In this document: piece by piece, positions 6,175 to 55,893 of the stretch
How positions within the stretch are numbered: the stretch's first letter is position 1
Layout of the letters: each line of letters opens with the position of its first letter
Assembly: GCA_045632345.1 (NCBI GenBank)
Contig: JAZQWM010000082.1
Location: 26,220 to 90,219, forward strand
Origin: Eubacteriales bacterium
Lineage (GTDB): Bacteria > Bacillota > Clostridia > Oscillospirales > CAG-272
Direction: 5' to 3'
DNA: 64,000 nucleotides
Made by a program: the position numbers and the translations under genes
The notes under the pieces: generated by a model
Seen by the model: only the letters and a program-made list of their open reading frames with translations
Databases searched by the model: none
Told to the model about the DNA's origin: nothing

Positions 6175-6280
6175 TCTGCTTCGCAGAGCGATATAACCGA
6201 ATACATTCGGTAGCGATATGCTTTCGCCAAACGAAAGCACGATATTCCGCCTAAGGCGGAGCGATATGCACCTTCGGTGC
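6175..6280. repeat. mini-hairpin array A1 (five hairpins joined by GCGATAT-type linkers)
   Basis: tctgcttcgcaga-GCGATAT-aaccgaatacattcggt-aGCGATAT-gctttcgccaaacgaaagc-aCGATAT-tccgcctaaggcgga-GCGATAT-gcaccttcggtgc. Colinear with 15538-15666. Confidence 0.9.
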
Positions 6281-6399: not shown

Positions 6400-8733
6400 T
6401 TATTTCTTAATCTTGTACGTTACGTGTACTGCGTTACCGCCTGTTAAGAGAATCATCTCAACTGCTGTCTTTGAGAAGTCGCCAGCCTTAACGATAAGTG
6501 GCTTATTAAGTGTTCCTCTTGCAAGAACCTTAACCGTCTTTGCTCTCTTATCAATAAGCTTCTTTTCCTTCATTGAAGCAAGGTTAACAATATCGTGAGC
6601 CTCGAATGCATCAGATAACGTATCAACGTTAACGATCGCTTTCTTTGTATCCTTAGCGCTAACGTACTCAACGCCTTCCTCTACGTGAACGTCGATATGT
6701 TGTTCCTCAGCGATTTGGTCTGCATCCTCTGCGCTGATTTCTTCAACGATAACCTCGTGCTCCTCGTAAACCTCTTCGATTACTTCTTCTTCGATTACTT
6801 CTTCGATAATTTCAACAGGAGCTTCCTCGATAACTTCCTCGGCCACCTCTGGGGCTACCTCTGGGGCTACCTCTTCGATAATTTCAACAGGAACTTCCTC
6901 AGCTACCTCTTCTACCACCTCAGGAACAGCCTCTTCAACTACTTCCTCGTTAGGTACTTCAGCAACTAATGCTTCTTCCTCAGTTACCTCTTCAACCGGC
7001 TTTGTTGATTTAACTATGATTGCATCATCAGGAATTAAGAGCTTAATTAAGCCACGCTCGATAAGTGGAGCATTTTCCTCATATGGATACATTGCAATAT
7101 AGTCAACTTCCTTAGCCTTTGGTTTTGTTTCAATTTCAAACTTAGCCATTACGATGTCAACAAGCTCCTTAGCCTTTCTAAGACCTAAGCCGCTCTTAAC
7201 CTTAACAAGCATTGGAACGTCTGCGAAGATTTTTGCATCGATTGCTTCGTGGTGATACTTGGACTTGTCAAATTCGTTAGGATCAAGGTTGCAGTAGAGA
7301 CAAATTGTCTTACCTCTTAGCTTCATCTTGAAGAGCTGATCTCTACCTCTGTTGTAGCTATCAAACTTCCAGCTAATTCTTGACTTAACGCCCTTGAATG
7401 ATAAAATGTAATTCTTTAATTCATTGTAATAACCCTTAACTGTGTCATCACTTTGAATGATGTTAGCAGTAATGCTACGGCTGAGCTTAATGTCAAGCTT
7501 GTTGCCGTCCTTATCAAAGTATGTAGGAACAACTACTGTGTTAGCTTCATCGGAAACCTCAACTACCTCCGGAGCTGGCTCCTCAGCCACTTCCTCGATA
7601 ATCTCAACAGGAGCTTCCTCGACAACCTCTTCAATAACCTCAACAGGTACTTCCTCAACTACTTCCTCAACTACTTCCTCAACCACCTCTGGGGCTACCT
7701 CTTCAGCTGCAGGGATTGGTTCTTCAACAACCTCAACAACCTCTTCAATAGCTTCCTCAGCAGTCTTTTCGGATTCTTCCTCAGCTACCTCTTCGATAAT
7801 TTCAACAGGAACTTCAGGGGCTACTTCCTCGGCTACCTCTTCGATAATTTCAACAGGTACTTCTTCAACAACCTCTGGGGCTACCTCTTCAACAACATCT
7901 TCAACTACCTTCTCAACAGGAGCCTCTGCTTCGAGAACGCCGCGTGAGAATAATTGAATTGTAAAGATAGATTCAGCGCCACTCTTATCAAGAATGATTT
8001 CGCCGTCCTTCTTAAAGCCCCAGCCTAAGAAGTTGTCATACTGCTCGTTTTCTTCAGGTAAAGAAAGCTTTAAGTAGTGTGATTCCTTATAGATATTTTT
8101 GTTAGCTACGCTGTCTGTAAAGAGAAGGTCAACGATAGCCTCGCTATTTGTTGGTACACCCGCTTGGCTAACTGGGCTTTCTTCAAATATTGGATAAAGA
8201 TTAATTACAAATGTTGCTTCAACGTCTTCCTTGGTGAGAATTGGCGCTTCATCAGGTGCAAAGCCCCAGCCATCAATTTCAACACCGTCGATTTGCTCAT
8301 CAGGAAGCTTTGTGTTAAGAACGAAGAATTCCTTCTTAACTGCTATATCCTCATCAGCGTCCATGTAATTAAACTCGATAGAAACTGCACTATTTGTTTC
8401 AACGTCCTCCCAAATTGTGTAAAGAGTTGTTGAACGAACTAAACAAAAAACAGAGTTTTCAATAGGCTTGGATTTACCAAGAACCTTTGACCAACCGATA
8501 AGCTTCTTGCCACTCTTTGCAGAGCCGTGGAGCTTAACCTTTTTGAAAAGCGGATGCTTTTCTGTGTGGATAACTACGTCGCCTTCTGTATCCACGTAAG
8601 TAATTGTTGGGCGAACTGTTAAAAGAACGATGCCCATTGTAAGAGCAATAACGGCAACAACGGCGAATAACCATGGGTTAACGTCGAAGATTGAAAGTGT
8701 TACTGCTTGGTTTAACAAACAAGTAAAATTCAT
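6400..8733 (-). CDS. membrane-anchored protein with InlB-B-like repeats, two acidic E/V/P low-complexity regions and a uL15-like C-terminal domain
   Basis: GGAGG RBS 7 nt before ATG 8733 (the track start 8787 is less likely). N-terminal TM helix. GW...TLYxIW-type repeats. C-terminus KVLARGTLNKPLIVKAGDFSKTAVEMILLTGGNAV resembles the ribosomal protein L15 C-terminus. Confidence 0.75.
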   Translation of the reverse strand: MNFTCLLNQAVTLSIFDVNPWLFAVVAVIALTMGIVLLTVRPTITYVDTEGDVVIHTEKHPLFKKVKLHGSAKSGKKLIGWSKVLGKSKPIENSVFCLVRSTTLYTIWEDVETNSAVSIEFNYMDADEDIAVKKEFFVLNTKLPDEQIDGVEIDGWGFAPDEAPILTKEDVEATFVINLYPIFEESPVSQAGVPTNSEAIVDLLFTDSVANKNIYKESHYLKLSLPEENEQYDNFLGWGFKKDGEIILDKSGAESIFTIQLFSRGVLEAEAPVEKVVEDVVEEVAPEVVEEVPVEIIEEVAEEVAPEVPVEIIEEVAEEESEKTAEEAIEEVVEVVEEPIPAAEEVAPEVVEEVVEEVVEEVPVEVIEEVVEEAPVEIIEEVAEEPAPEVVEVSDEANTVVVPTYFDKDGNKLDIKLSRSITANIIQSDDTVKGYYNELKNYILSFKGVKSRISWKFDSYNRGRDQLFKMKLRGKTICLYCNLDPNEFDKSKYHHEAIDAKIFADVPMLVKVKSGLGLRKAKELVDIVMAKFEIETKPKAKEVDYIAMYPYEENAPLIERGLIKLLIPDDAIIVKSTKPVEEVTEEEALVAEVPNEEVVEEAVPEVVEEVAEEVPVEIIEEVAPEVAPEVAEEVIEEAPVEIIEEVIEEEVIEEVYEEHEVIVEEISAEDADQIAEEQHIDVHVEEGVEYVSAKDTKKAIVNVDTLSDAFEAHDIVNLASMKEKKLIDKRAKTVKVLARGTLNKPLIVKAGDFSKTAVEMILLTGGNAVHVTYKIKK
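6700..7000. repeat. in-frame degenerate tandem repeats encoding (E-E-V-x) acidic tract 1
   Basis: Repeated gaagaagt/ctcttcgataatttcaacagg units. They generate spurious antisense ORFs. Confidence 0.8.
7550..7940. repeat. in-frame degenerate tandem repeats encoding acidic tract 2
   Basis: Same unit family as 6700-7000 (ctcttcgataatttcaacagg occurs in both tracts). Confidence 0.8.
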
Positions 8734-8920
8734 AAAAAACCTCCAAAAAATATTCGATACGTACTGTTCGTTGTTATAATTATACAATAATATTATTTAT
8801 TTGTCAACAAATAATTATTAAAATCAGTAAAGTTTTTTGTGAAATTTAGACACTCTGTCCACCGTTTTTTCATTTTGGAGCGTCTTGATTAACAAAAATA
8901 ACGTCAAACTAAATTTACTA

Positions 8921-10289: not shown

Positions 10290-10348
10290 GTTCGCTTCGC
10301 TCACAGGGGATAGGATATAGGAGATAGGGGCTCGCTTCGCTCACAGGG
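10290..10348. repeat. composite repeat: 18-mer / GWYAG heptad tract / 18-mer
   Basis: gttcgcttcgctcacagg (10290-10307), ggggataggatataggagatagggg (10306-10330, GATAG/TATAG/GATAG spaced 7 nt), ggctcgcttcgctcacaggg (10329-10348). Confidence 0.9.
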
Positions 10349-15267: not shown

Positions 15268-15317
15268 GGTTCGCTACGCGAACAGCAGTCAGCGGTTAGC
15301 CGTCAGCGGATAGCGAG
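15268..15317. repeat. 18-mer variant hairpin + GWYAG heptad tract directly after the AKR stop
   Basis: ggttcgctacgcgaac (perfect hairpin variant of the 18-mer), then GTCAG/GTTAG/GTCAG/GATAG at exact 7-nt spacing (15288-15313). Confidence 0.85.
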
Positions 15318-15426
15318 ATTTCAAAACGATTTGAAAAAATCAAGCGGTCAGCAAGCAGTGCCACGCCCCCGTCCCCTGTCACCGCTAAATTGATGAAAAG
15401 TTTTCAGTATAACATATTGTTTTAAT

Positions 15427-15456
15427 AAAAAATCACGGATTGCTCCGTGATTTTTT
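15427..15456. terminator. bidirectional rho-independent terminator
   Basis: A-run, atcacgga-ttgc-tccgtgat, T-run. Same core as 6365-6396. Confidence 0.85.
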
Positions 15457-15537
15457 GTTGGAATTATTGCCCACAAATTACGATTTGTCGCATTAAAATC
15501 AAAAAACTAATTTTGCTGACTGCAGGCGGTTAACACA

Positions 15538-15666
15538 TCTGCTTCGCAGAGCGATATGTCGTGCAATGCACGCGCGATATAACCGAATAACTTCGGTAGC
15601 GATATGCTTTCCCTAGGCGAAAGCTCGATATTCCGCCAAAGGCGGAGCGATATGCACCTTCGGTGC
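15538..15666. repeat. mini-hairpin array A2 (six hairpins, GCGATAT linkers)
   Basis: tctgcttcgcaga-GCGATAT-gtcgtgcaatgcacgc-GCGATAT-aaccgaataacttcggt-aGCGATAT-gctttccctaggcgaaagc-tCGATAT-tccgccaaaggcgga-GCGATAT-gcaccttcggtgc. Confidence 0.9.
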
Positions 15667-15700
15667 GTGCTGACGGCTAACAGCTAACAGCTAACGGCTA
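15667..15700. repeat. heptad tract (gctgacg gctaaca gctaaca gctaacg gcta) overlapping the GH78 stop codon
   Basis: CTRAC core every 7 nt on the plus strand, which reads GTTAG on the GH78 coding strand. Confidence 0.85.
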
Positions 15701-17830
15701 AAAAATATATTTTCCTGCTGAAACGTTGTGTGTTACGCCGTCAATTATAATCGTGCTTTCAACAGGTGTTTCGATTTCGTAGCGGATTTTGTTGTCAACG
15801 TGGTACCATTTTGAGGACACAACGCCTTGCTTTGTTTCAATTTTTGCGGACAGGTGGCTAAGCTTGTCCGTTGGCTTTGGTGCGATTAAGATTTTTTTAA
15901 AGCCGGGCGCAAGTGGCTTAATGCCACAGGCTTCCTCGTAAATCCAATCGGCAACGCTACCATAGGCGTAGTGGTTAAAGGAATTCATATCCTTTGACCA
16001 GAAATCGCCCTGCTCGTTTTTGCCGTCCCAATGCTCCCAAATTGTAGTTGCGCCTTGGTTAACAGAGTAGAGCCATGAAGGGAAATCCTCTTGTAAAAGT
16101 AGGTTATATGCAGTTTCTGTGTAGCCATTTTGAGATAACGCGTGGAGTAAAAACGGAGTGCCAACAAATCCTGTTTTTAGCTTGTTGCCGTTTTTCACAA
16201 TCATGGTATTTAGCTGCTTTGCTACCTTTTCCTTGTCGGTTGCTATATCAAAATAAAGTGCCAATGCACACTCTGTTTGAGTTTTGTATTTTTTAAAGGT
16301 TTTTCTAATTCTACTAAGTATTCTTTCTTGTAGGTGGCGGTATTTTTTACTGCTTCTGCCTAAAATTTCGCACACATCCCCCACTATTTTAACAGAATTG
16401 TAGTAAAATACAGAGCCGATAAAGTCATCATTTGATGAGCCTTTATAATCTCCTGCAGGAGCGTCAAGTCCTAGCCAGTCGCCAAATTGCCAGCATCCGT
16501 ACCATAAATATCTTCTTGTGGTGTGAGTGCGAATGTAGTCAAGGTATCTAACCATTGTTTTAAGTTGATTTTTAAGGAAATCAACGTTACCATAGGTCAT
16601 ATACATTGTGTATGGAATAATAGTTGAGCTATCTCCCCATACTGCTCCGCTTTCCTCACTTGTTGACCAGTCCCAGCATACGGTTTGAGGGATAATGTTT
16701 GGAATGTTGCCCTGTTTACCTTGGTCAAGGCGCATATCCGTTAGCCATTTAGTAAAGAATTTTTCTACGTCAAAATTATATGATGCAGTTCTGCAAAAGA
16801 CGGTGGCATCTCCTGTCCAGCCCTGTCTTTCATCTCTTTGAGGACAATCGGTAGGCACGTCAAGGAAGTTGCCCTTCTGTCCCCAAATTATATTTGAAAA
16901 TAGTTGGTTAAGCTTTGGATTTGAGCTTTCAATATAGCCTGTTCTCTTTATATCGGAGTGAACAACGATAGCCTTGATATTTTCCTTTGTAATTTCAGTC
17001 GGGAAGCTATCAACGCGCATATATCTAAATCCCCAAAACGCTAGCTTTGGTTTATAGGTATTTACGCCCTCATGACAAATATACTCAAATCTTGCCTTGG
17101 CATCACGGTAATTTTCGTTATAGAAGTTGCCGTATTTATCAAGGACCTCACAAACGGTAAATTCTACCTTATCGCCTTTTTGGGCGTTTACGGTAAACTC
17201 AAAATATCCTGTTAAATTTTGACCGAAATCCACGATTGTATCGCCGTTTGGAGCTTTAAATATAGACACAGGTCTAATATTTTCCTGCTCTACGATTTTT
17301 TCGCCCTGTTGCTTTACGATAATTTCTTTAGTGTGGTCAAGTATAGATACAGGCACTAAGGTGTTTTCAAAATTGCTATCGTAAATTTCCCCATCGTAAA
17401 GCTCTGCAAAGCGTAATTTGTCCTTGCGCCCTTGCCAGCTATTATCTGTTACAATCGTTTCCTTAGCTCCGTCCTTATATAAAATTTCAATTTGGCAAAT
17501 TAAAGCTTTTGGCACATCGTTTGCTACAACGAAGTTGATTTTGCCGTTATACCAGCCATCTCCCACTAAAATTTCAAGGGAGTTTTCCTTTTGGAGCATG
17601 CTTATAATATCATACTCCTGATACTGCACTCTTTTTCTTGAGGTAAAGCCGGGGGCTAAAATAAAATTCCCAACTCTTACTCCATTTAACTCAGGATAGT
17701 AACAGCCTAAGGAAGTAACAAACAGCGTTGCTTTTTTTACTTCCTTATTTATATTAAATTTCTTAACGAAGCATGATGGCTCATATAAAATATTATTTGG
17801 ATGTGTTATCCATTTTGCATTTTCAAACAT
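15698..17830 (-). CDS. alpha-L-rhamnosidase (GH78 family)
   Basis: GH78 signature region DVPTDCPQRDERQGWTGDA. Start overlaps the upstream stop (TAATG). Confidence 0.9.
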   Translation of the reverse strand: MFENAKWITHPNNILYEPSCFVKKFNINKEVKKATLFVTSLGCYYPELNGVRVGNFILAPGFTSRKRVQYQEYDIISMLQKENSLEILVGDGWYNGKINFVVANDVPKALICQIEILYKDGAKETIVTDNSWQGRKDKLRFAELYDGEIYDSNFENTLVPVSILDHTKEIIVKQQGEKIVEQENIRPVSIFKAPNGDTIVDFGQNLTGYFEFTVNAQKGDKVEFTVCEVLDKYGNFYNENYRDAKARFEYICHEGVNTYKPKLAFWGFRYMRVDSFPTEITKENIKAIVVHSDIKRTGYIESSNPKLNQLFSNIIWGQKGNFLDVPTDCPQRDERQGWTGDATVFCRTASYNFDVEKFFTKWLTDMRLDQGKQGNIPNIIPQTVCWDWSTSEESGAVWGDSSTIIPYTMYMTYGNVDFLKNQLKTMVRYLDYIRTHTTRRYLWYGCWQFGDWLGLDAPAGDYKGSSNDDFIGSVFYYNSVKIVGDVCEILGRSSKKYRHLQERILSRIRKTFKKYKTQTECALALYFDIATDKEKVAKQLNTMIVKNGNKLKTGFVGTPFLLHALSQNGYTETAYNLLLQEDFPSWLYSVNQGATTIWEHWDGKNEQGDFWSKDMNSFNHYAYGSVADWIYEEACGIKPLAPGFKKILIAPKPTDKLSHLSAKIETKQGVVSSKWYHVDNKIRYEIETPVESTIIIDGVTHNVSAGKYIF

Positions 17831-18900: not shown

Positions 18901-18959
18901 CTACCCGCTAACGGCTGGCGTTGCCCTGCTGACCACTGACCACTGACCACTGACCACTC
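18901..18959. repeat. heptad tract, nine units in register, ending in perfect (ACTGACC)x4
   Basis: ctacc..ctaac..ctggc..tgccc..ctgac x4, core positions 18901, 08, 15, 22, 29, 36, 43, 50, 57. Confidence 0.95.
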
Positions 18960-27362: not shown

Positions 27363-27794
27363 TTATAGCTTTGCAATATCGCTATCAGTAATAAGTCTGA
27401 GTCCTGCATTTTGCAAAATTGCTTCTGCCTCTTCGTTTTCCTCAACTCTTAATACCACGTAAGCATGTCTTTCTGTACGAGCCATGAAAGCGTACATATA
27501 TTCAATATTGATGCTTGCTTCGTCAAGCGCTTTAAGTGCTGAGGTTAGCTTGCCAGGCTGGTCTCCTATTTTTACGCCAACTACGTTGATTGTTTTAATA
27601 AGGTAGCCAGCCGCTAAAAGAACCTCTTCAGCCTTTTTAGTATCGTTTACGATAAGTCTTAAAATACCGAACGCCTCTGTTTCTGCAATAGATAACGCTC
27701 TTAAATTGATATTGTTGTTTGCAAGGATTTCAGTTACTGAAGCAACTGTTCCCTTTTCATTTTGTACGAATACTGTTACTTGCTTAATTGCCAT
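27363..27794 (-). CDS. ACT domain-containing protein
   Basis: Two ACT-like halves. This is the typical partner gene downstream of PaaK-family ligases. Confidence 0.8.
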   Translation of the reverse strand: MAIKQVTVFVQNEKGTVASVTEILANNNINLRALSIAETEAFGILRLIVNDTKKAEEVLLAAGYLIKTINVVGVKIGDQPGKLTSALKALDEASINIEYMYAFMARTERHAYVVLRVEENEEAEAILQNAGLRLITDSDIAKL

Positions 27795-27807
27795 TTTAAT
27801 ATCCCCC

Positions 27808-29115
27808 TTACACTAATTTACGCTTGTCAATAACGCGAACTGCCTTGCCTTCGCTTCTTGCGATTGTCTTTGGAGCAACTAAATGTACCTTTGGATTTAT
27901 GCCAAGCATTGCTTTCATAGCTTCGCTAAGTGATTTTTCCATAGAAATAATCTCGCCAACCTTATCGGTAAATTGCTCTGGTGCAAGCTCTACGTTAACC
28001 TCAAAGGTATCTGTATTGTTTACACGGTCAACTACGATTTGGTAGTTTGGCTGATAGCCCTCGTTTAAGAGAACTGTTTCAATTTGGCTTGGGAATACGT
28101 TTACGCCACGGATAATAAGCATATCATCAGTTCTGCCCATAGGCTTAGCCATTTTAACTAACGTACGACCACAGGAGCATTTTTCTCTTGAAAGAACACA
28201 AATATCGCGTGTGCGGTAACGAAGAAGCGGGAACGCTTCCTTATCAAGTGATGTGAAAACAAGCTCTCCCTTTTCTCCCTCAGGTAAAACCTCTCCTGTA
28301 TCAGGGTTGATAATTTCCGCATAGAAGTGGTCCTCATTTATGTGCATGCCTGTTTGCTCACAGCATTCAAATGCTACGCCAGGGCCAGACGTTTCTGTAA
28401 GACCGTAAATATCGTACGCCTTAATACCAAGTGTTGCTTCGATATTCTTTCTCATTTCCTCAGTCCAAGGCTCAGCACCGAAAATGCCCGCCTTTAAAGG
28501 AATATCCTCAGGCTTATAACCCTGCTCCTTTAAGGATTCGCCAATATATGCAGCGTATGATGGTGTGCAGCAAATAATTGATGCGTTTAAGTCCATCATA
28601 AATTGAATTTGTCTATCTGTGCTGCCTGATGACATAGGAAGTGTAAGACAGCCTACCTTATGAGAGCCACCGTTAAGACCTGCGCCACCTGTAAATAGAC
28701 CGTAGCCGTAAGCTACTTGGCACACATCCTTTTTGCTTCCGCCTGCTGCCACAATAGCTCTTGCACAGCAATCCTCCCATAAATCAATATCGTTTTGAGT
28801 GTAGAACGCCACAACTCTACGGCCTGTTGTACCTGATGTTGAGTGAATTCTTACACATTCATCAAGAGGCTTTGCTAAAAGACCGTATGGGTATGCATCT
28901 CTTAAATCAGCCTTTGAAAGGAAAGGAAGCTTATATAAATCATCAATTCCCTTAATATCCTCAGGCTTAACGCCTTTTTCGTCCATTAAATTACGGTAAT
29001 ACTCTACGTTTTCGTAAACGTGCTTTACCTGCTTAACAAGCTTTTCTGATTGGAGCTTTTTCATGTCCTCTCTGGACATGGTTTCAATTTCTCTTTGGTA
29101 ATAGTTTTTTTCCAT
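27808..29115 (-). CDS. phenylacetate--CoA ligase family protein (PaaK / F390 synthetase-like adenylating enzyme)
   Basis: Length and motifs (SSGTTGRxV, YGLTE, C-terminal GKAxRVIDxR) match the PaaK family. Confidence 0.88.
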   Translation of the reverse strand: MEKNYYQREIETMSREDMKKLQSEKLVKQVKHVYENVEYYRNLMDEKGVKPEDIKGIDDLYKLPFLSKADLRDAYPYGLLAKPLDECVRIHSTSGTTGRRVVAFYTQNDIDLWEDCCARAIVAAGGSKKDVCQVAYGYGLFTGGAGLNGGSHKVGCLTLPMSSGSTDRQIQFMMDLNASIICCTPSYAAYIGESLKEQGYKPEDIPLKAGIFGAEPWTEEMRKNIEATLGIKAYDIYGLTETSGPGVAFECCEQTGMHINEDHFYAEIINPDTGEVLPEGEKGELVFTSLDKEAFPLLRYRTRDICVLSREKCSCGRTLVKMAKPMGRTDDMLIIRGVNVFPSQIETVLLNEGYQPNYQIVVDRVNNTDTFEVNVELAPEQFTDKVGEIISMEKSLSEAMKAMLGINPKVHLVAPKTIARSEGKAVRVIDKRKLV

Positions 29116-29164: not shown

Positions 29165-29479
29165 TTCTTTTCTCATGTAGAAAACAAAACGCCCTCTGCA
29201 TTCCGAAAAGAATACAGAGGACGAGAAACTATCCCGTGGTACCACCTCAGTTCGCCACCGTCTCACAACGGCAGCCTTTTCAGGTACTAACATACCTTAG
29301 TTCTATGACGGGAACACCCGTTGCATCCTACTAGGGAAACCCCATTCAGCGCACAGCTAACAGAATGAATTCGTGAAGGATAACTCCCTTGCCTCGCACC
29401 AAACGGCAATTCTCTGAACGGGTTATTCCAGCCTACTACTTTCTGCTCATCGCATTTACATGAATAATTTTTCATTCAT
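29165..29479 (-). promoter_or_regulatory. T-box riboswitch leader, specifier UUC (Phe), with intrinsic terminator
   Basis: On the minus strand: stem I GCGAUGAGCAGAAAGUAGUA, AGAGA box, distal GGUGCGA loop, specifier loop ACGAA-UUC-A (29369-29367), T-box core GAGGUGGUACCACGGG (29247-29232), terminator cctctgtattc-ttttcg-gaatgcagagg + U-run (about 29220-29178). Confidence 0.85.
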
Positions 29480-35307: not shown

Positions 35308-35385
35308 TTTGCTTCTCCTTTCTGTTTATATTATGTAACGCAAACTGTTGTCAAAAGTGTTGTCGCACAAAATTGCAATATGTAC

Positions 35386-35422
35386 AAAAAGTGGCTTGGA
35401 ATAAGGCTTCCAAGCCACTTTT
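35386..35422 (-). terminator. bidirectional rho-independent terminator ending the guaA 3' UTR
   Basis: AAAAA-gtggcttgg-(10 nt)-ccaagccac-TTTT. Confidence 0.75.
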
Positions 35423-35520
35423 AAACCTTATTTATTCCTTGTTTTTTAATGTTCGGCAAAGAAAAACTATGTCTTTGGCATATTCTTTTGCTTTGTTTCT
35501 CAAAACGCTATCTGACATAT

Positions 35521-35755
35521 CAAAACCTCAGAGTTTTGGTTTTATAGTTATGAGTTTGGCTCTGCCAAACGTTATGATGTGCTACCGCACAGTTATGATT
35601 TTGCCTACGGCAAAAGTTATGATATGATTGCCTAGCTAACTTCAAGCGTGGCTCCGCCACTCATAACTGCGAGCGTCGCGAGCATCATAACTACGCTAAG
35701 CGTATCATAGCTTGCCGTTAGGCAATCATAGTTGATTTTCGCGTTACGAAAATCA
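35521..35755. repeat. mini-hairpin array A4 with GTTATGAT linkers that switch to the complementary ATCATAAC/ATCATAG linkers midway
   Basis: Ten hairpins (e.g. gtttggc-tct-gccaaac, gtgc-tacc-gcac, ttttgcc-tac-ggcaaaa, gtggc-tcc-gccac, acgc-taa-gcgt, ttgcc-gtta-ggcaa, tgattttcg-cgtta-cgaaaatca). The last hairpin contains the guaA stop codon. Confidence 0.85.
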
Positions 35756-36757
35756 CTCCCACTCAATAGTGCCAACAGGCTTTGGTGTAAGGTCGTAGAG
35801 AACTCTATTGATGCCCTCAACCTCTGCCGTGATTCTATCTGTGATTTTGTGAAGAACCTTATATGGAATTTCTTCGATTGTTGCTGTAATTGCCTTCTTT
35901 GTGTTTACGGCACGGATAATTGCAGGCCATCCCTCATATCTTGCATCGTCCTTAACGCCTACGCTCTTGATGTCAGGAATTACAACGAAGTATTGCCATA
36001 CCTTCTTATTAAGACCGCACTTGTCAAACTCCTCACGAAGAATTGCATCAGCCTCACGGAGTGCGTGAAGTCTGTCTCTTGTGATAGCGCCTAAGCAACG
36101 AACGCCAAGACCTGGTCCTGGGAATGGCTGACGGTAAACCATAGAATGTGGTAAGCCAAGAGCTTCGCCAACAACTCTAACCTCATCTTTATATAAGAGC
36201 TTAAGTGGCTCAACAAGCTCAAATTTAAGGTCATCAGGAAGTCCGCCAACGTTGTGGTGGGATTTAACTGCCTTTTTGCCCTCTCCTTGCTCAATGCTCT
36301 CTAAAATGTCAGGATAAATTGTGCCTTGCGCTAAATATTCAACGCCTTCAAGCTTTCTAGCCTCTTCAGCAAAAACCTCAATAAATTCCTTACCGATAAT
36401 CTTTCTCTTGCTTTCTGGGTCGCTAACACCTGCTAAAAGGTTAAGGAAACGGTCTGTTGCGTCAATGTAGATAAGATTTTCGCCAAGCATTTTGCCAAAA
36501 ACCTCACAAACGCCTTCGCTTTCGTTCTTTCTCATTAAACCATGGTTTACATGTACGCAATATAATTGCTTGCCGATAGCCTTGCTTAAAAGCGCCGCTA
36601 AAACTGATGAGTCAACACCACCTGAAAGAGCCAAGAGAACCCTCTTATCTCCAACCTGGTTCTTGATTTCCTCAATTTGTTGAGCGATAAATGCTTCTGC
36701 TAATTTTTTTGTTTTGATTTCCTTCATTGTTTGTGGTCTTACTGCTTGTTGTGCCAT
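35753..36757 (-). CDS. guaA: GMP synthase ATP-pyrophosphatase/dimerisation subunit only (no glutamine amidotransferase domain)
   Basis: PP-loop LALSGGVDSSV and the canonical C-terminus ...GTIEWE. At 334 aa it lacks the ~190-aa GATase domain of single-chain bacterial GuaA. Confidence 0.9.
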   Translation of the reverse strand: MAQQAVRPQTMKEIKTKKLAEAFIAQQIEEIKNQVGDKRVLLALSGGVDSSVLAALLSKAIGKQLYCVHVNHGLMRKNESEGVCEVFGKMLGENLIYIDATDRFLNLLAGVSDPESKRKIIGKEFIEVFAEEARKLEGVEYLAQGTIYPDILESIEQGEGKKAVKSHHNVGGLPDDLKFELVEPLKLLYKDEVRVVGEALGLPHSMVYRQPFPGPGLGVRCLGAITRDRLHALREADAILREEFDKCGLNKKVWQYFVVIPDIKSVGVKDDARYEGWPAIIRAVNTKKAITATIEEIPYKVLHKITDRITAEVEGINRVLYDLTPKPVGTIEWE

Positions 36758-36962: not shown

Positions 36963-37550
36963 TTATGCTATAACCTTGATTTCAACATGCTCAGCATGCT
37001 CCTTTACCTTTTTGGCAAATGCTACTGCGCTTACAAAATCGCTTGGTCTTATGGTAATTTCCGCTTTTAAATCTTCCTTTTCGTCTATAACCACGCCGCT
37101 GAACAGTGAGGTATTATCCGTTGCGAATACCACAAGCTTTTTAGACACCCAAATACATTTTATATCCTCATAATTTATTCTGTATTCCTTGCCGTAGTGA
37201 TAGCATACAAGCTTTTCGTCAATGAACGTATAAAATGAGCATTCTCCCCCTACCGTTACGCAGTTTTCAAGATACGTTTGGCTTGATTTTCCTCTATACA
37301 TAGCAACGATAACGCCTAGCTTTTCTAGATAGCTTACAAGCTCAAGGACTAAGCTCATATCCTTTTTCTTAAAGCTTACGTAGGTATCGTTTACGTTGAT
37401 ATATCCCTTTGACAAAAATCCCGGCTTTTTAATGAACACGCTTTCAATTTTGCCAAACGTAAACCTGTTTGCTTCGTACGTTCTTGTGATTAGTCCATCT
37501 GCACCAAGCTCAATGGAGCTGCCTGTTTAAAATTCAAATTTTTTACTCAT
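36963..37550 (-). pseudogene. hypothetical protein gene with an in-frame TAA at codon 8 (37527-37529)
   Basis: ATG 37550 has an AAGAGG RBS. The frame reads MSKKFEF*TGSSIELGADGLITRTYEANRFTFGKIES and runs straight into track ORF 36963-37439, which starts on a GTG with no RBS. Confidence 0.65.
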
Positions 37551-38574: not shown

Positions 38575-39112
38575 TCAGGGGACAGGGGTTCGCTTCGCTC
38601 ACAGGGATAGTTAGTAAACAATTTTTTATAACTAATCCACAGCTATCTCGCATTTTTCCAAATCACCTGAATAAATCCTACCTTTAAAGTGCATTTAATC
38701 ATTTAGACTTAATTTTTTCACTATTGCATTTATTAGTTTAGCTACTTCTTTACAACCTTGCATAACAGTATCTACTGTTTCTTCTTTTTCAAAATAGCCA
38801 AGCATTTTACAAATTTCTAACTGTGTTTCAAGTTCTGCTCTTGACGCATTTGCGATAAATAAAAACTGTATGTATTCCTTTGTGCTTCTTCGCTCGTATC
38901 CTTCTGCAATGTTGGAAGGAATAGAAATAACGCTTCTTCTCATTTGATCTGCTAAAGCAAACCTCTCATTGTTTGGTAATTGATTTATAAGCCCATATGT
39001 ATCTTTTACCAAATCCATTGCTTTTTGCCAAACCACTAAATCTCTATAATCTCTCATAAACTAATCCCCCTGTGAGCAAGGCGAACCCCTGTCTCCTGTC
39101 CCTTGTCCCCTG
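38575..39112 (-). mobile_element. inverted-repeat-bounded cassette carrying a four-helix-bundle gene (IVS-like / MITE-like element)
   Basis: Left arm is tcaggggacaggggttcgcttcgctcacaggg (38575-38606). The reverse complement of the right arm (39066-39112) is caggggacaagggacaggagacaggggttcgccttgctcacaggggg. The core of about 25 nt matches with 2 mismatches. Confidence 0.65.
38695..39057 (-). CDS. four-helix-bundle protein (23S rRNA intervening-sequence protein family, Avd-like)
   Basis: MRDYRDLVVWQKAMDLV...ISIPSNIAEGYERRSTKEYIQFL...ELETQLEI matches the family signature closely. Its RBS (AGGGGG) lies inside the cassette arm. Confidence 0.9.
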   Translation of the reverse strand: MRDYRDLVVWQKAMDLVKDTYGLINQLPNNERFALADQMRRSVISIPSNIAEGYERRSTKEYIQFLFIANASRAELETQLEICKMLGYFEKEETVDTVMQGCKEVAKLINAIVKKLSLND

Positions 39113-39277
39113 TTATACTATTTCATAAGAAAACATTTCGTACTTCAAATGTGTGCCAATATCAACGCCCTCAGGCAATAATGCCATTGCGATAAATATT
39201 TCGTTTTCTGTGTTTTCCTCAAGTATGTAGGCGTATTCGCCCTCAATTTTTGTAACTACATAGTATTTTGTTTCCAT
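39113..39277 (-). CDS. small protein, DUF3006-like (54 aa; not in the ORF track)
   Basis: AGGGAG RBS. METKYYVVTKIEGEYAYILEE...LLPEGVDIGTHL resembles the DUF3006 pattern. Confidence 0.55.
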   Translation of the reverse strand: METKYYVVTKIEGEYAYILEENTENEIFIAMALLPEGVDIGTHLKYEMFSYEIV

Positions 39278-45977: not shown

Positions 45978-45985
45978 ACGTAAAA

Positions 45986-46170
45986 GGGGATAGGGTATAG
46001 GGGCTCATTGCATTCGCAGGGGTTCGCTATGCTCACAGGAGAAATTAGTTCGAACGAAAATAACGAAGAAAAGAAATAAGCACTTTCAAGTGGCGTGGAT
46101 AATATAAAATGTCAAAGGATAATGCGATAGAGTAATTACCCTATCCCCTATCCCCTGACCCCTGTCCCCT
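45986..46170 (+). mobile_element. gene-less inverted-repeat element in the pheS-pheT spacer (same family as 38575-39112)
   Basis: Left arm ggggatagggtatagggg (45986-46003) plus 18-mer ggttcgctatgctcacagg (46021-46039). Right arm ccctatcccctatcccctgacccctgtcccct (46139-46170). The arms pair at 16 of 17 positions. Confidence 0.65.
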
Positions 46171-46174
46171 TGAG

Positions 46175-48683: not shown

Positions 48684-48723
48684 GGCTCGCTTCGCTCACA
48701 GCCGTCAGCCGTCAGCGGTTAGC
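48684..48723. repeat. 18-mer + GWYAG heptad tract
   Basis: ggctcgcttcgctcacag, then ccgtcag ccgtcag cggttag c. Confidence 0.9.
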
Positions 48724-48765
48724 AAGTTTTGCTCAATGCATATTTTGACCATATAATTCATTGTG

Positions 48766-48795
48766 TAGCTACTAACCACTAGCCACTTACCACTA
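48766..48795. repeat. heptad tract (tagctac taaccac tagccac ttaccac ta)
   Basis: 7-nt periodicity. It reads as the GWYAG type on the minus strand, downstream of the minus-strand gene. Confidence 0.8.
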
Positions 48796-48823
48796 AAAAA
48801 GCAACCGAAATCGGTTGCTTTTG
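48795..48823 (-). terminator. rho-independent terminator (minus strand)
   Basis: AAAAAA-gcaaccga-aa-tcggttgc-TTTTG (bidirectional form). Confidence 0.85.
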
Positions 48824-54338: not shown

Positions 54339-54410
54339 CTAACAATCACTAATCTATCCCGCTGACCGCTATCGGCTAACCGCTGACAGCTGTGAGCGAC
54401 CGAAGGGAGC
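54339..54410. repeat. CTRWC heptad tract + 18-mer variant forming the 5' UTR and RBS of the GT2 gene
   Basis: ctaac..ctatc..ctgac..ctatc..ctaac..ctgac..ctgtg (69-73, 76-80, 83-87 and 90-94 in exact 7-nt register), then ctgtgagcgaccgaagggagc supplying AGGGAG 8 nt before the ATG. Confidence 0.85.
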
Positions 54411-55654: not shown

Positions 55655-55685
55655 GACACATCCTAAAGGGGTGTGTCATTTTTTT
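55655..55685 (+). terminator. rho-independent terminator
   Basis: gacacatcc...gggtgtgtc followed by ATTTTTTT. Confidence 0.8.
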
Positions 55686-55864
55686 AGCCGCCAGCCGTTA
55701 GCAGTCAGCCCGCACCGAAGGTGCATATCGCTACGAAGCAGTGCTTCGTTTTATCGCTGAATTACGGAGTAATTTTATATTGCTCGCCGTAGGCGTATCT
55801 CGCTCTGCAAAGCAACGCTTTGCAATTTACCTGTTGCGAAGCAACAATTTACCGCTGGCGGCTA
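55685..55864. repeat. mini-hairpin array A5 (inverted orientation) enclosed by an 11-bp inverted repeat
   Basis: TAGCCGCCAGC (55685-55695) ... gcaccgaaggtgc-ATATCGC-acgaagcagtgcttcgt-tTTATCGC-...-gccgtaggc-...-tgcaaagcaacgctttgca-ATTTACC-tgttgcgaagcaaca-ATTTACCgc ... GCTGGCGGCTA (55854-55864). Confidence 0.85.
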
Positions 55865-55893
55865 AAAAATCCACACCTCTCGGTGTGGATTTT
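55864..55893 (-). terminator. rho-independent terminator (minus strand)
   Basis: AAAAAA-tccacacc-tctc-ggtgtgga-TTTT. Confidence 0.85.

Follow-up and report, generated by a model that had tools for sequence, protein, structure and literature searches.

A tagged hairpin array between guaA and its terminator in a Clostridia genome, probably a remnant of an S23p cassette

The locus examined here lies in a 64-kb stretch of contig JAZQWM010000082.1 from an Eubacteriales bacterium (hereafter the window, 64,000 nucleotides in all) and raises a question: How did a row of small hairpins, separated by a short tag that switches to its own complement halfway, come to lie behind a guaA gene? An original prediction, made from the bare sequence, had described this array as part of the guaA messenger RNA (mRNA), and in its layout the description is sound. 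The array does stand between the guaA stop codon and a terminator with a 15-bp perfect stem, found where it had been placed about 100 nt beyond the array, and in guaA sense the order is four tags of the form RYTATGA, a centre and four TCATAAC tags. The answer that we favour is that the array is the non-coding, cis-acting part of a selfish cassette of the intervening sequence (IVS) type, now decayed, which is inserted between guaA and its terminator. Taken with its mechanism, this reading is moderately probable; the part that concerns identity, namely family membership, the cassette, its deletion and the complementary words of sister elements, is very probable on the sequence comparisons presented below.

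On the plus strand of the window, GTTATGA tags lie at 35547, 35571, 35592 and 35616, and their complements follow as TCATAAC (35661 and 35685), TCATAGC (35705) and TCATAGT (35726). These words and coordinates agree with those first proposed, but the first reverse tag reads cTCATAAC and not ATCATAAC. Eight matches to RYTATGA fall within the 186 nt of the array, where about 0.1 would be expected in a stretch of such length; the whole window has 56 on both strands (39 +/- 6 in shuffled sequences), and the array on the 3' side of guaA is their sole cluster. Between and beside the tags stand eight perfect hairpins with stems of 5-9 bp, instead of the ten or so side hairpins originally counted, together with one unit (35668-35684) that forms no hairpin and is a direct repeat, GCGAGC..GCGAGC on the plus strand and GCTCGC..GCTCGC in guaA sense. 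The word TCATAAC is also found in the anticodon loop of tRNA-Met, and ATG or GTG can be read in the forward tags; we regard both as coincidences and make no use of them.

The identity of the array emerges from its relatives, which we designate by locus numbers (L). In the closest full-length one, L191 (77% nucleotide identity over guaA and the array), the array is followed by a hairpin bearing a Shine-Dalgarno (SD) sequence, in the same arrangement as in the window, and then by an intact open reading frame (ORF) of 116 aa whose stop abuts a terminator of the window type. This ORF matches PF05635 (Pfam, 1e-26), TIGR02436 "four helix bundle protein" (6e-29) and the five chains of PDB 2rld (4e-27); PF05635 and TIGR02436 represent the Avd-like S23p family of the IVSs of 23S ribosomal RNA (rRNA), and PADLOC gave no defence-system match for the ORF. 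The window retains a remnant of the same ORF (26 aa with 65% identity to the L191 protein, E 8e-7 by tblastn) and lacks 263 bp that correspond to positions 3734-3996 of L191 (blastn). At least 14 of the loci fetched have the ORF behind the array, and it is intact in L191, L095, L169, L180, L187, L195 and others; loci retrieved by exact-protein look-ups also have the ORF 3' of the array, mostly after guaA with a gap of 190-207 nt that is the array itself; look-ups of this kind with the guaA protein of the window, or with the second S23p protein described below, returned no match. Truncated ORFs are present in L002 and L026 and none in L018, the array being intact in all three. In relatives the array is a module placed directly upstream of an SD sequence and a PF05635 ORF, and the window copy is one from which most of the ORF was deleted. 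The terminator hairpin of the window is found in relatives directly 3' of either guaA or the cassette ORF. In the array-less relatives L009 and L062 some 15 nt separate it from the guaA stop; an insertion of about 330 nt is therefore present in the window.

The family was collected with a metagenome scan based upon the conserved centre, most pattern matches of which were microsatellite-like noise and were filtered out, and from loci fetched later, giving 58 elements; nine pattern matches in viral contigs were all simple-repeat noise. Its members share a layout of a boundary hairpin (hp0), three or four forward units, the conserved centre, three or four inverted units and then TCTAAAC. Each forward unit consists of the 7-nt tag RYTATGA plus a perfect mini-palindrome of 5-7 bp with a cTNCg loop, and each inverted unit has a cGNAg loop followed by TCATAAC; forward and reverse tags are similar in number, being equal in 22 of 40 copies by an approximate count that misses first tags of the ACTATGA type. 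Units change as wholes, by replacement or duplication: two of the reverse units in the window are entirely different from those of L191, one unit occurs three times in L194, and both L194 and L120 contain shuffled or duplicated units. The boundary hairpin takes three forms in relatives, that of the window, a hairpin of 14-19 bp or the terminator of the host gene, and in L026, L070, L095 and L169 its 3' arm of 14-19 nt repeats the last guaA codons in inverted form.

The distribution of the family extends well beyond guaA. Among 80 species representatives, the array follows guaA in L002, L026 and L070, while in L018 it lies 2 kb from guaA beside a duplicated guaA 3' end. A guaA flank is the commonest context (15 of the 41 copies with enough upstream sequence), yet in L210-L212, as in L018, only a displaced fragment of the guaA 3' end adjoins the array, and at least 20 copies have unrelated flanks, including an AraC-type regulator, a GH25-like gene, an RluB-like gene, rpsI, an EtfA-like gene and a transfer RNA (tRNA) with its terminator. 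An ORF of the same strand ends no more than 160 nt upstream in 36 of 43 copies. Arrays persist also without the ORF and at many unrelated sites. In the guaA tree, the loci that bear an array are scattered among those that do not, with the array-less L008 placed beside the window and L191. The expectation that close relatives would keep the array at guaA fails with such nearest neighbors, and guaA does not seem to need it. From this comparative evidence, the element is a dispersed, conserved family and not a peculiarity of guaA.

The 3' end of guaA stands out in another respect. A duplicated guaA 3' end (gagtgggaaTGA...) adjoins the array in L018, L210-L212 and L217, separated from the preceding gene by 0.6-2 kb of other DNA (in L210, for example, it comes after a SIR2_2 gene), and several other relatives have integrase-like sequence immediately 3' of guaA. 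The displaced ends and the integrase-like sequences together make the guaA 3' end a hot spot for integration.

Further evidence comes from sister cassettes that use other words. A sister clade of the ORF (53% identity; L032 and L227-L246) sits after a tRNA and a terminator and has the layout of four GTGAAG tags, the centre GGCACAC and four CTTCAC tags, with outermost units complementary over 28 nt. A third ORF clade has no hairpins at all: bare tandem heptamers stand 5' of the ORF and their reverse complement 3' of it, as with AGGGTGT/AGGATGT in L249, where arms of 24-32 nt are up to 100% complementary, and with the inverted repeats, also in the range of 24-32 nt, that flank the ORF in L252 (heptamer TTCAGTG) and L257 (ACAGGGG/ACAGGAG). 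The window itself contains one such S23p-type cassette, intact and wedged between genes of the same strand (38576-39113, minus strand); its ORF (38695-39057; TIGR02436, 3e-38, with a weak Avd match) belongs to the third clade, and an ACAGGGG-type inverted repeat of 31 nt, 90% complementary, joins 39068-39098 with 38576-38606. The blocks lie both 5' of the ORF or one on each side of it depending on lineage, and the tag word changes together with the ORF clade. The complementarity of the two halves that had been noticed in the window is a conserved design, for in every sister cassette, too, the words of the second block are those of the first in reverse complement. Such complementarity, kept while the words change, represents covariation at family level and supports either pairing of the blocks or a requirement for an inverted repeat as such.

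Other repeats in the window resemble these elements in one respect or another. A heptamer inverted repeat, (GCNGTYA)n, has arms of 24 nt at 15284-15307 and 15669-15692 (88% complementary) and no ORF inside; the region 15284-15701 encloses a terminator and an array of hairpins in one orientation (15538-15665) with the tag GCGATAT. Two more hairpin arrays with the tag GCGATAT/ATATCGC are found, one at 6175-6280, with five units in the same order as in the array at 15538, and one at 55673-55876, where an inverted array (55712-55850) sits inside an inverted repeat of 26 nt (55673-55698 and 55851-55876); these arrays all lie between convergent genes. An intergenic fold-back without ORF spans 45985-46171, its AGGGGAT-type heptamers (45985-46002) facing 4.6 copies of CCCTATC (46139-46156) over arms of 18 nt that are 94% complementary and 136 nt apart. 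There are also intergenic tandem heptamers at 18929-18958 (CTGACCA, 4.3 copies), 48699-48796 (CAGCCGT/ACTAACC), 54359-54392 (CCGCTGA, 4.9 copies) and 10305-10328 (AGGAGAT, 3.4 copies); for those at 18929, 48699-48796 and 54359, no inverted partner was present within the stretches tested. The features of the guaA locus are collected in table 1.

Table 1. Features of the array and its surroundings in the window (sequences in guaA sense)
Feature	Position	Strand	Description
guaA-type gene	35753..36757	-	334 aa; host gene, stop codon inside the first hairpin; from ORF list, Pfam and NCBIfam
hp0, 9-bp hairpin TGATTTTCG/CGAAAATCA	35733..35755	-	Holds the guaA stop TGA (35755-35753); left boundary of the element
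Forward block	35661..35732	-	Tags ACTATGA 35726-35732, GCTATGA 35705-35711, GTTATGA 35685-35691, GTTATGA 35661-35667
hp1 TTGCC/GGCAA	35712-35725	-	Forward block
hp2 TACGC/GCGTA	35692-35704	-	Forward block
Direct-repeat unit, non-hairpin	35668-35684	-	Forward block, third unit
Last forward-block hairpin GTGGC/GCCAC	35648-35660	-	Followed by the conserved centre; both in 35623..35660
Conserved centre gcttgaagttagcTAGGCAATCATA	within 35623..35660	-	ATCATATCATAAC invariant in all family members
P1 helix, 3' strand TAGGCAATCATA	35623..35634		Pairs at 12 of 12 positions with 35719-35730
P1 helix, 5' strand TATGATTGCCTA	35719..35730		First tag and 5' arm of hp1
Reverse block	35547..35622	-	TCATAAC tags 35616-35622, 35592-35598, 35571-35577, 35547-35553
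Reverse-block hairpins	35599-35615, 35578-35591, 35554-35570	-	TTTTGCC/GGCAAAA, TGTGC/GCACA, GTTTGGC/GCCAAAC, in sense order
SD-bearing hairpin CAAAAC/GTTTTG	35521..35538	-	Shine-Dalgarno-like GAGG in loop and 3' arm, just 5' of the start of the remnant ORF
Cassette ORF remnant (MSDSVLRNKAKEYAKDIVFLCRTLKNKE, then stop)	35432..35518	-	28 codons and stop; deletion junction at about 35445-35448
Rho-independent-type terminator	35387..35422	-	15-bp perfect stem with A-run and T-run in the stem; common to guaA and cassette

The host gene codes for no more of GMP synthase than the ATP-pyrophosphatase and dimerisation part (Pfam GMP_synt_C, 7e-35; NCBIfam PRK00074, residues 189-512, 3e-139), and its closest relatives are 84-85% identical in protein sequence. 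The lineage of the window is one of gut Clostridia, Oscillospiraceae/Acutalibacteraceae-like. The ORF upstream of it (36963-37439) has no family match, and no glutamine amidotransferase partner adjoins the gene in the window. The terminator is missing from the list of a consensus terminator scan because its A-run and T-run belong to the stem.

The nearest known parallel for the element is the IVS in the 23S rRNA gene of Coxiella, in which an S23p ORF is preceded by tandem heptameric repeats, GACAGAT, in variable number and a terminal inverted-repeat stem of 28 bp is cut by ribonuclease III (RNase III); the ORF is decaying in some strains, including one deletion of 176 bp, and the RNA part, the authors suggest, is of greater importance than the protein (PMC4990558). 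S23p genes have been noticed also between cas genes (PMC3936711), and the family is related to Avd, the accessory protein of diversity-generating retroelements (PMC10053308). With the 23S rRNA IVSs of Coxiella, Leptospira and Salmonella type, the guaA element shares the ORF family (PF05635/TIGR02436), the heptamers and the complementary blocks, the lack of a promoter within a host transcript, and the loss of the ORF by deletion while the RNA part persists. It differs from them in lying outside rRNA, behind a protein gene, tRNA or terminator and not in helix 25 or 45 (no rRNA was found in the 64-kb window), in having both blocks 5' of the ORF in the guaA lineage, and in arms split into 7-nt tags by variable mini-palindromes. 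Excision by RNase III, which has been demonstrated for the rRNA elements (PMC4990558), is proposed here by analogy.

The mechanism would then be as follows. The cassette, having no promoter of its own, would be transcribed from the host gene, and in the host transcript its two blocks of tags would fold back on each other, while the palindromes stick out or cross-pair, to form a double-stranded processing site of RNase III type. Once cut, the transcript would release the cassette RNA, and the guaA mRNA would end in the stop-codon hairpin; this may be why the host gene tolerates the insertion. Thermodynamic and comparative indications make such cutting of a double-stranded fold-back, as in IVSs, a tentative proposal that is possible but somewhat short of probable. 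The near perfection of the Watson-Crick palindromes is probably maintained in the DNA, through template switching at quasipalindromes and slippage of units, rather than by RNA selection on each pair. Template switching of this kind perfects and extends palindromes, and it would also explain the inverted copies of guaA codons in the boundary hairpins of four relatives; d(cGNAg) mini-hairpins, moreover, are unusually stable in DNA.

How far does folding bear out this proposal? The folding energy of the array lies far below that of shuffled sequences, with z = -5.0 on the minus strand and -5.2 on the plus strand for RNA parameters, and -6.7 and -7.1 on the two strands for DNA parameters. For the RNA of the window the energy is -50.7 kcal/mol with local hairpins only, -60.2 with the long-range helix P1 (table 1) added, -61.9 for the comb of linker-linker helices originally predicted and -83.8 for the minimum free energy (MFE) fold, an imperfect duplex between the halves whose cross-pairings are not conserved. 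The comb pairs have a mean probability of 0.003 in RNA. DNA parameters place 26 of the 28 linker-linker pairs in the MFE fold of the plus strand, with an ensemble probability of 0.09, and on the other strand a different pairing register wins.

Covariation was examined in 34 aligned copies, across which the homologous units of the forward block can be aligned. Every pair of the local hairpins hp2 and hp4 has changed on both sides, and 96.6% of stem cells are paired versus 76% in shuffles and 32-43% in slid controls. Over the 58 elements, at least five Watson-Crick pairs form in 97 of 120 distinct inter-tag units versus 3 of 120 when shuffled, and there are 54 distinct 5' arms, the tags remaining invariant while the stems turn over. 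Unguided RNAalifold selects P1, in which the first tag and the 5' arm of hp1 pair with the centre GGCAATCATA. P1 is the only long-range helix with covariation; four of its pairs have changed on both sides (UA in 26 copies and CG in 8 at one position, CG in 11 and UA in 10 at another), with the variants TTGCC/GGCAA, TCGCC/GGCGA, TTCGCC/GGCGAA and TTGCCC/GGGCAA. P1 excludes the local hairpin hp1, which also covaries, and the covariation is therefore three-way. The roughly 560 pairs of the stems include three G-U, two A-C and three other mismatches; loops are mostly of 3 nt, TNC in 21 forward units and GNA in none, GNA in 22 reverse units and TNC in one, and in 88 of 95 units the loop is closed by 5'-C..G-3'. 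The mirrored loop classes imply that reverse units are true inversions of forward units, each strand reading the same 5' to 3'. A comparison of G-U with A-C pairs is uninformative for assigning the strand (3 versus 2 in stems, 7 versus 4 in P1).

Several of these and other observations weigh against the cleaved fold-back. The linker-linker helices of the comb have no pair changed on both sides in the aligned copies, a consequence of tags that hardly vary; the predicted preference for linker-linker pairing over local hairpins thus has energy in its favour (-61.9 versus -50.7), while covariation is nil and the ensemble probability of 0.003-0.09 speaks against it. A fold-back of some kind is energetically plausible according to these calculations. 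P1 joins the outermost tag of the forward block to the innermost one of the reverse block and is not nested as a simple inverted repeat would be. With both blocks 5' of the ORF in the guaA lineage, folding back would not excise the ORF, unlike in rRNA IVSs, and 7-bp helices interrupted by junctions are unlike the substrates that RNase III classically cuts. Strong terminators precede several copies, whose transcription may therefore be poor. The cassette encodes no recombinase, and the guaA junction shows only an ambiguous AATAA/TAA overlap, from which a target-site duplication is not definable. Finally, the near absence of G-U pairs and the mirrored 3-nt loops fit palindromes of DNA better than a selected RNA.

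The last point leads to the main rival, a role as single-stranded DNA of the kind known for repetitive extragenic palindromes (REPs), their mosaic clusters (bacterial interspersed mosaic elements, BIMEs) and REPINs. Tag and cGNAg mini-hairpin would here be recognised in trans, on either strand when it is single-stranded, by an enzyme like the HUH-type REP-associated tyrosine transposase (RAYT) or by the pentamer of the cassette, and the cluster would be copied or moved, transcription being incidental. We consider this unlikely, even if much in the array is congenial to it: the two strands read alike 5' to 3', loops are coded by orientation, the C-G closing pair is nearly constant and G-U pairs almost absent; units are shuffled, replaced and tandemly duplicated between copies, the element is dispersed over many flanks, and a boundary hairpin that copies host coding sequence in inverted form, as in some members, needs templated DNA synthesis. 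REP clusters with conserved tags in head-head, tail-tail and head-tail arrangements are known, and the array resembles them in its extragenic palindromes with an end tag, both orientations, conserved linkers, mosaic structure and location at gene 3' ends (PMC3733652). However, REPs have conserved stems, whereas in this family only tags, loop class and architecture are conserved and the stems vary, even within one array; by the many distinct 5' arms reported above, the elements do not share one palindrome, as judged across the 58 collected copies and within single arrays. The tag, a lineage-dependent 7-mer (RYTATGA, GTGAAG), is neither GTAG nor CGTC, and it is linked to a four-helix-bundle ORF; no Y1/HUH transposase or RAYT gene occurs among the annotated neighbors in the window and the fetched loci, and viral contigs gave no true matches. 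The orientation bias with respect to the upstream gene and the fixed site before SD and ORF also suit an RNA role.

Another possibility is that the array displays its heptamer tags between hairpins as binding sites for a sequence-specific protein, most plausibly the Avd-like pentamer of the cassette, for autoregulation or RNA packaging. Invariant tags amid stems that turn over, the concerted change of tag word and ORF clade, and a set of four plus four tags facing a pentameric protein family (the five chains of PDB 2rld; a homopentamer in PMC4990558) all suit such a reader. We nonetheless deem it improbable, because half of the tags on each strand are the complement, so that a reader of single strands could use one block only, and because arrays remain intact where the ORF in cis has been deleted or is absent (the window, L002, L018, L026 and many other ORF-less copies).

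As to the view from which the original prediction started, a comb in the 3' untranslated region (UTR) that stabilises or regulates the guaA mRNA specifically, it can appeal to the position of the array between stop and terminator, to the stop codon inside hp0, to guaA as the commonest context and to the greater stability of the comb over local hairpins alone, but it is already largely contradicted by comparative data and highly improbable, given that most close guaA relatives lack the array, that at least 20 further genes, tRNAs or terminators have the same array behind them, that relatives have the array followed by its own ORF, and that the comb has neither covariation nor appreciable ensemble probability.

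Known classes of non-coding elements were also compared with the array. The MAEB motif of Burkholderia likewise consists of successive hairpins with conserved linkers (PMC1950547), but its hairpin has conserved positions and it lies 5' of metabolic genes, in one orientation and in another phylum. The attC sites of integrons are similar in conserving structure more than sequence, in their inverse 7-nt core sites at the ends and in belonging to cassettes without promoters. They read RYYYAAC...GTTRRRY on both strands; here the order is reversed (RYTATGA...TCATARY), the core matches at 5 of 7 positions, the sister words GTGAAG/CTTCAC lack GTT/AAC, and there is no integrase gene. Arrays of clustered regularly interspaced short palindromic repeats have repeats of about 23-50 nt, unique non-palindromic spacers and cas genes, whereas the constant part of this array is 7 nt, its variable part is palindromic, its orientation flips and no cas genes are nearby. 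A cluster of Rho-independent terminators does not fit either, for the hairpins are followed by a tag and not by a T-run, and the scan gave one weak match on the opposite strand only. A promoter-like TTGCCT-16-TATGAT occurs inside the array on the plus strand and also on the sense strand of canonical copies, but we reject it as a promoter, its -35 box and spacing not being conserved (TCGCCT; a 19-nt spacer in TTGCCC variants). At gathering score, Rfam 15 matches the window only with a T-box and Staphylococcus-1, both outside the array; with E up to 10 in the region 35350-35800, the array reaches only 13-22 bits, far below gathering scores, and the best weak match, L10_leader, lies over the terminator (30.4 bits versus a gathering score of 44). 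The literature searched on hairpin arrays, tandem hairpins with linkers, PF05635/TIGR02436, and REPs with four-helix bundles contains no description of this architecture.

A few other features of the window deserve mention. The Staphylococcus-1 motif (2861-2986, 108 bits, minus strand) lies directly 5' of a 445-aa ORF with an HNH domain (1446-2986, motif included), which has weak matches to the HNH region of IscB/Cas9d; the ORF may encode an RNA-guided nuclease, the motif being its guide RNA. A frame of 795 aa (6400-8787, minus strand) ends in about 75 residues of ribosomal protein L15; the roughly 650 residues that precede them consist of tandem repeats of 12-72 nt with an acidic, EEV-type product, either a giant N-terminal extension or an ORF called too long. 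The T-box leader (29214-29459, minus strand, 97 bits) is upstream of an AMP-binding/ACT gene pair (27363-29115) and not of an aminoacyl-tRNA synthetase.

To our knowledge, IVS elements and S23p proteins have been known for more than 30 years with neither a function nor a means of mobility assigned to them, and have been studied almost only in rRNA genes. The cassette reading advanced here carries, first, a warning for annotation, in that such arrays would not be regulators of the gene that they follow, and it may also explain several odd intergenic repeats of the window as one class. The many natural variants, differing in tag words, in arms with or without hairpins and in the presence or absence of the ORF, allow the role of the fold-back and the reader of the tags to be tested, and the same ORF family has at least 8000 matches per clade (E <= 1e-5) in gut-metagenome sequences, where it stands behind ordinary genes and is always accompanied by a heptamer fold-back specific to the lineage. 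In a broader and decidedly speculative extension, which we think rather unlikely, S23p cassettes would be widespread, unrecognised minimal selfish elements outside rRNA, each with a lineage-specific heptamer fold-back, bare or interleaved with mini-palindromes, tolerated by the host through excision from the transcript and read at their tags by the pentameric protein. If so, many intergenic heptamer repeats and hairpin arrays of these Clostridia would be the remains of cassettes that have lost their ORF, as possibly would the heptameric short tandemly repeated repetitive (STRR) sequences of cyanobacteria, and a protein family that has had neither since 1993 would acquire a model for both function and mobility.

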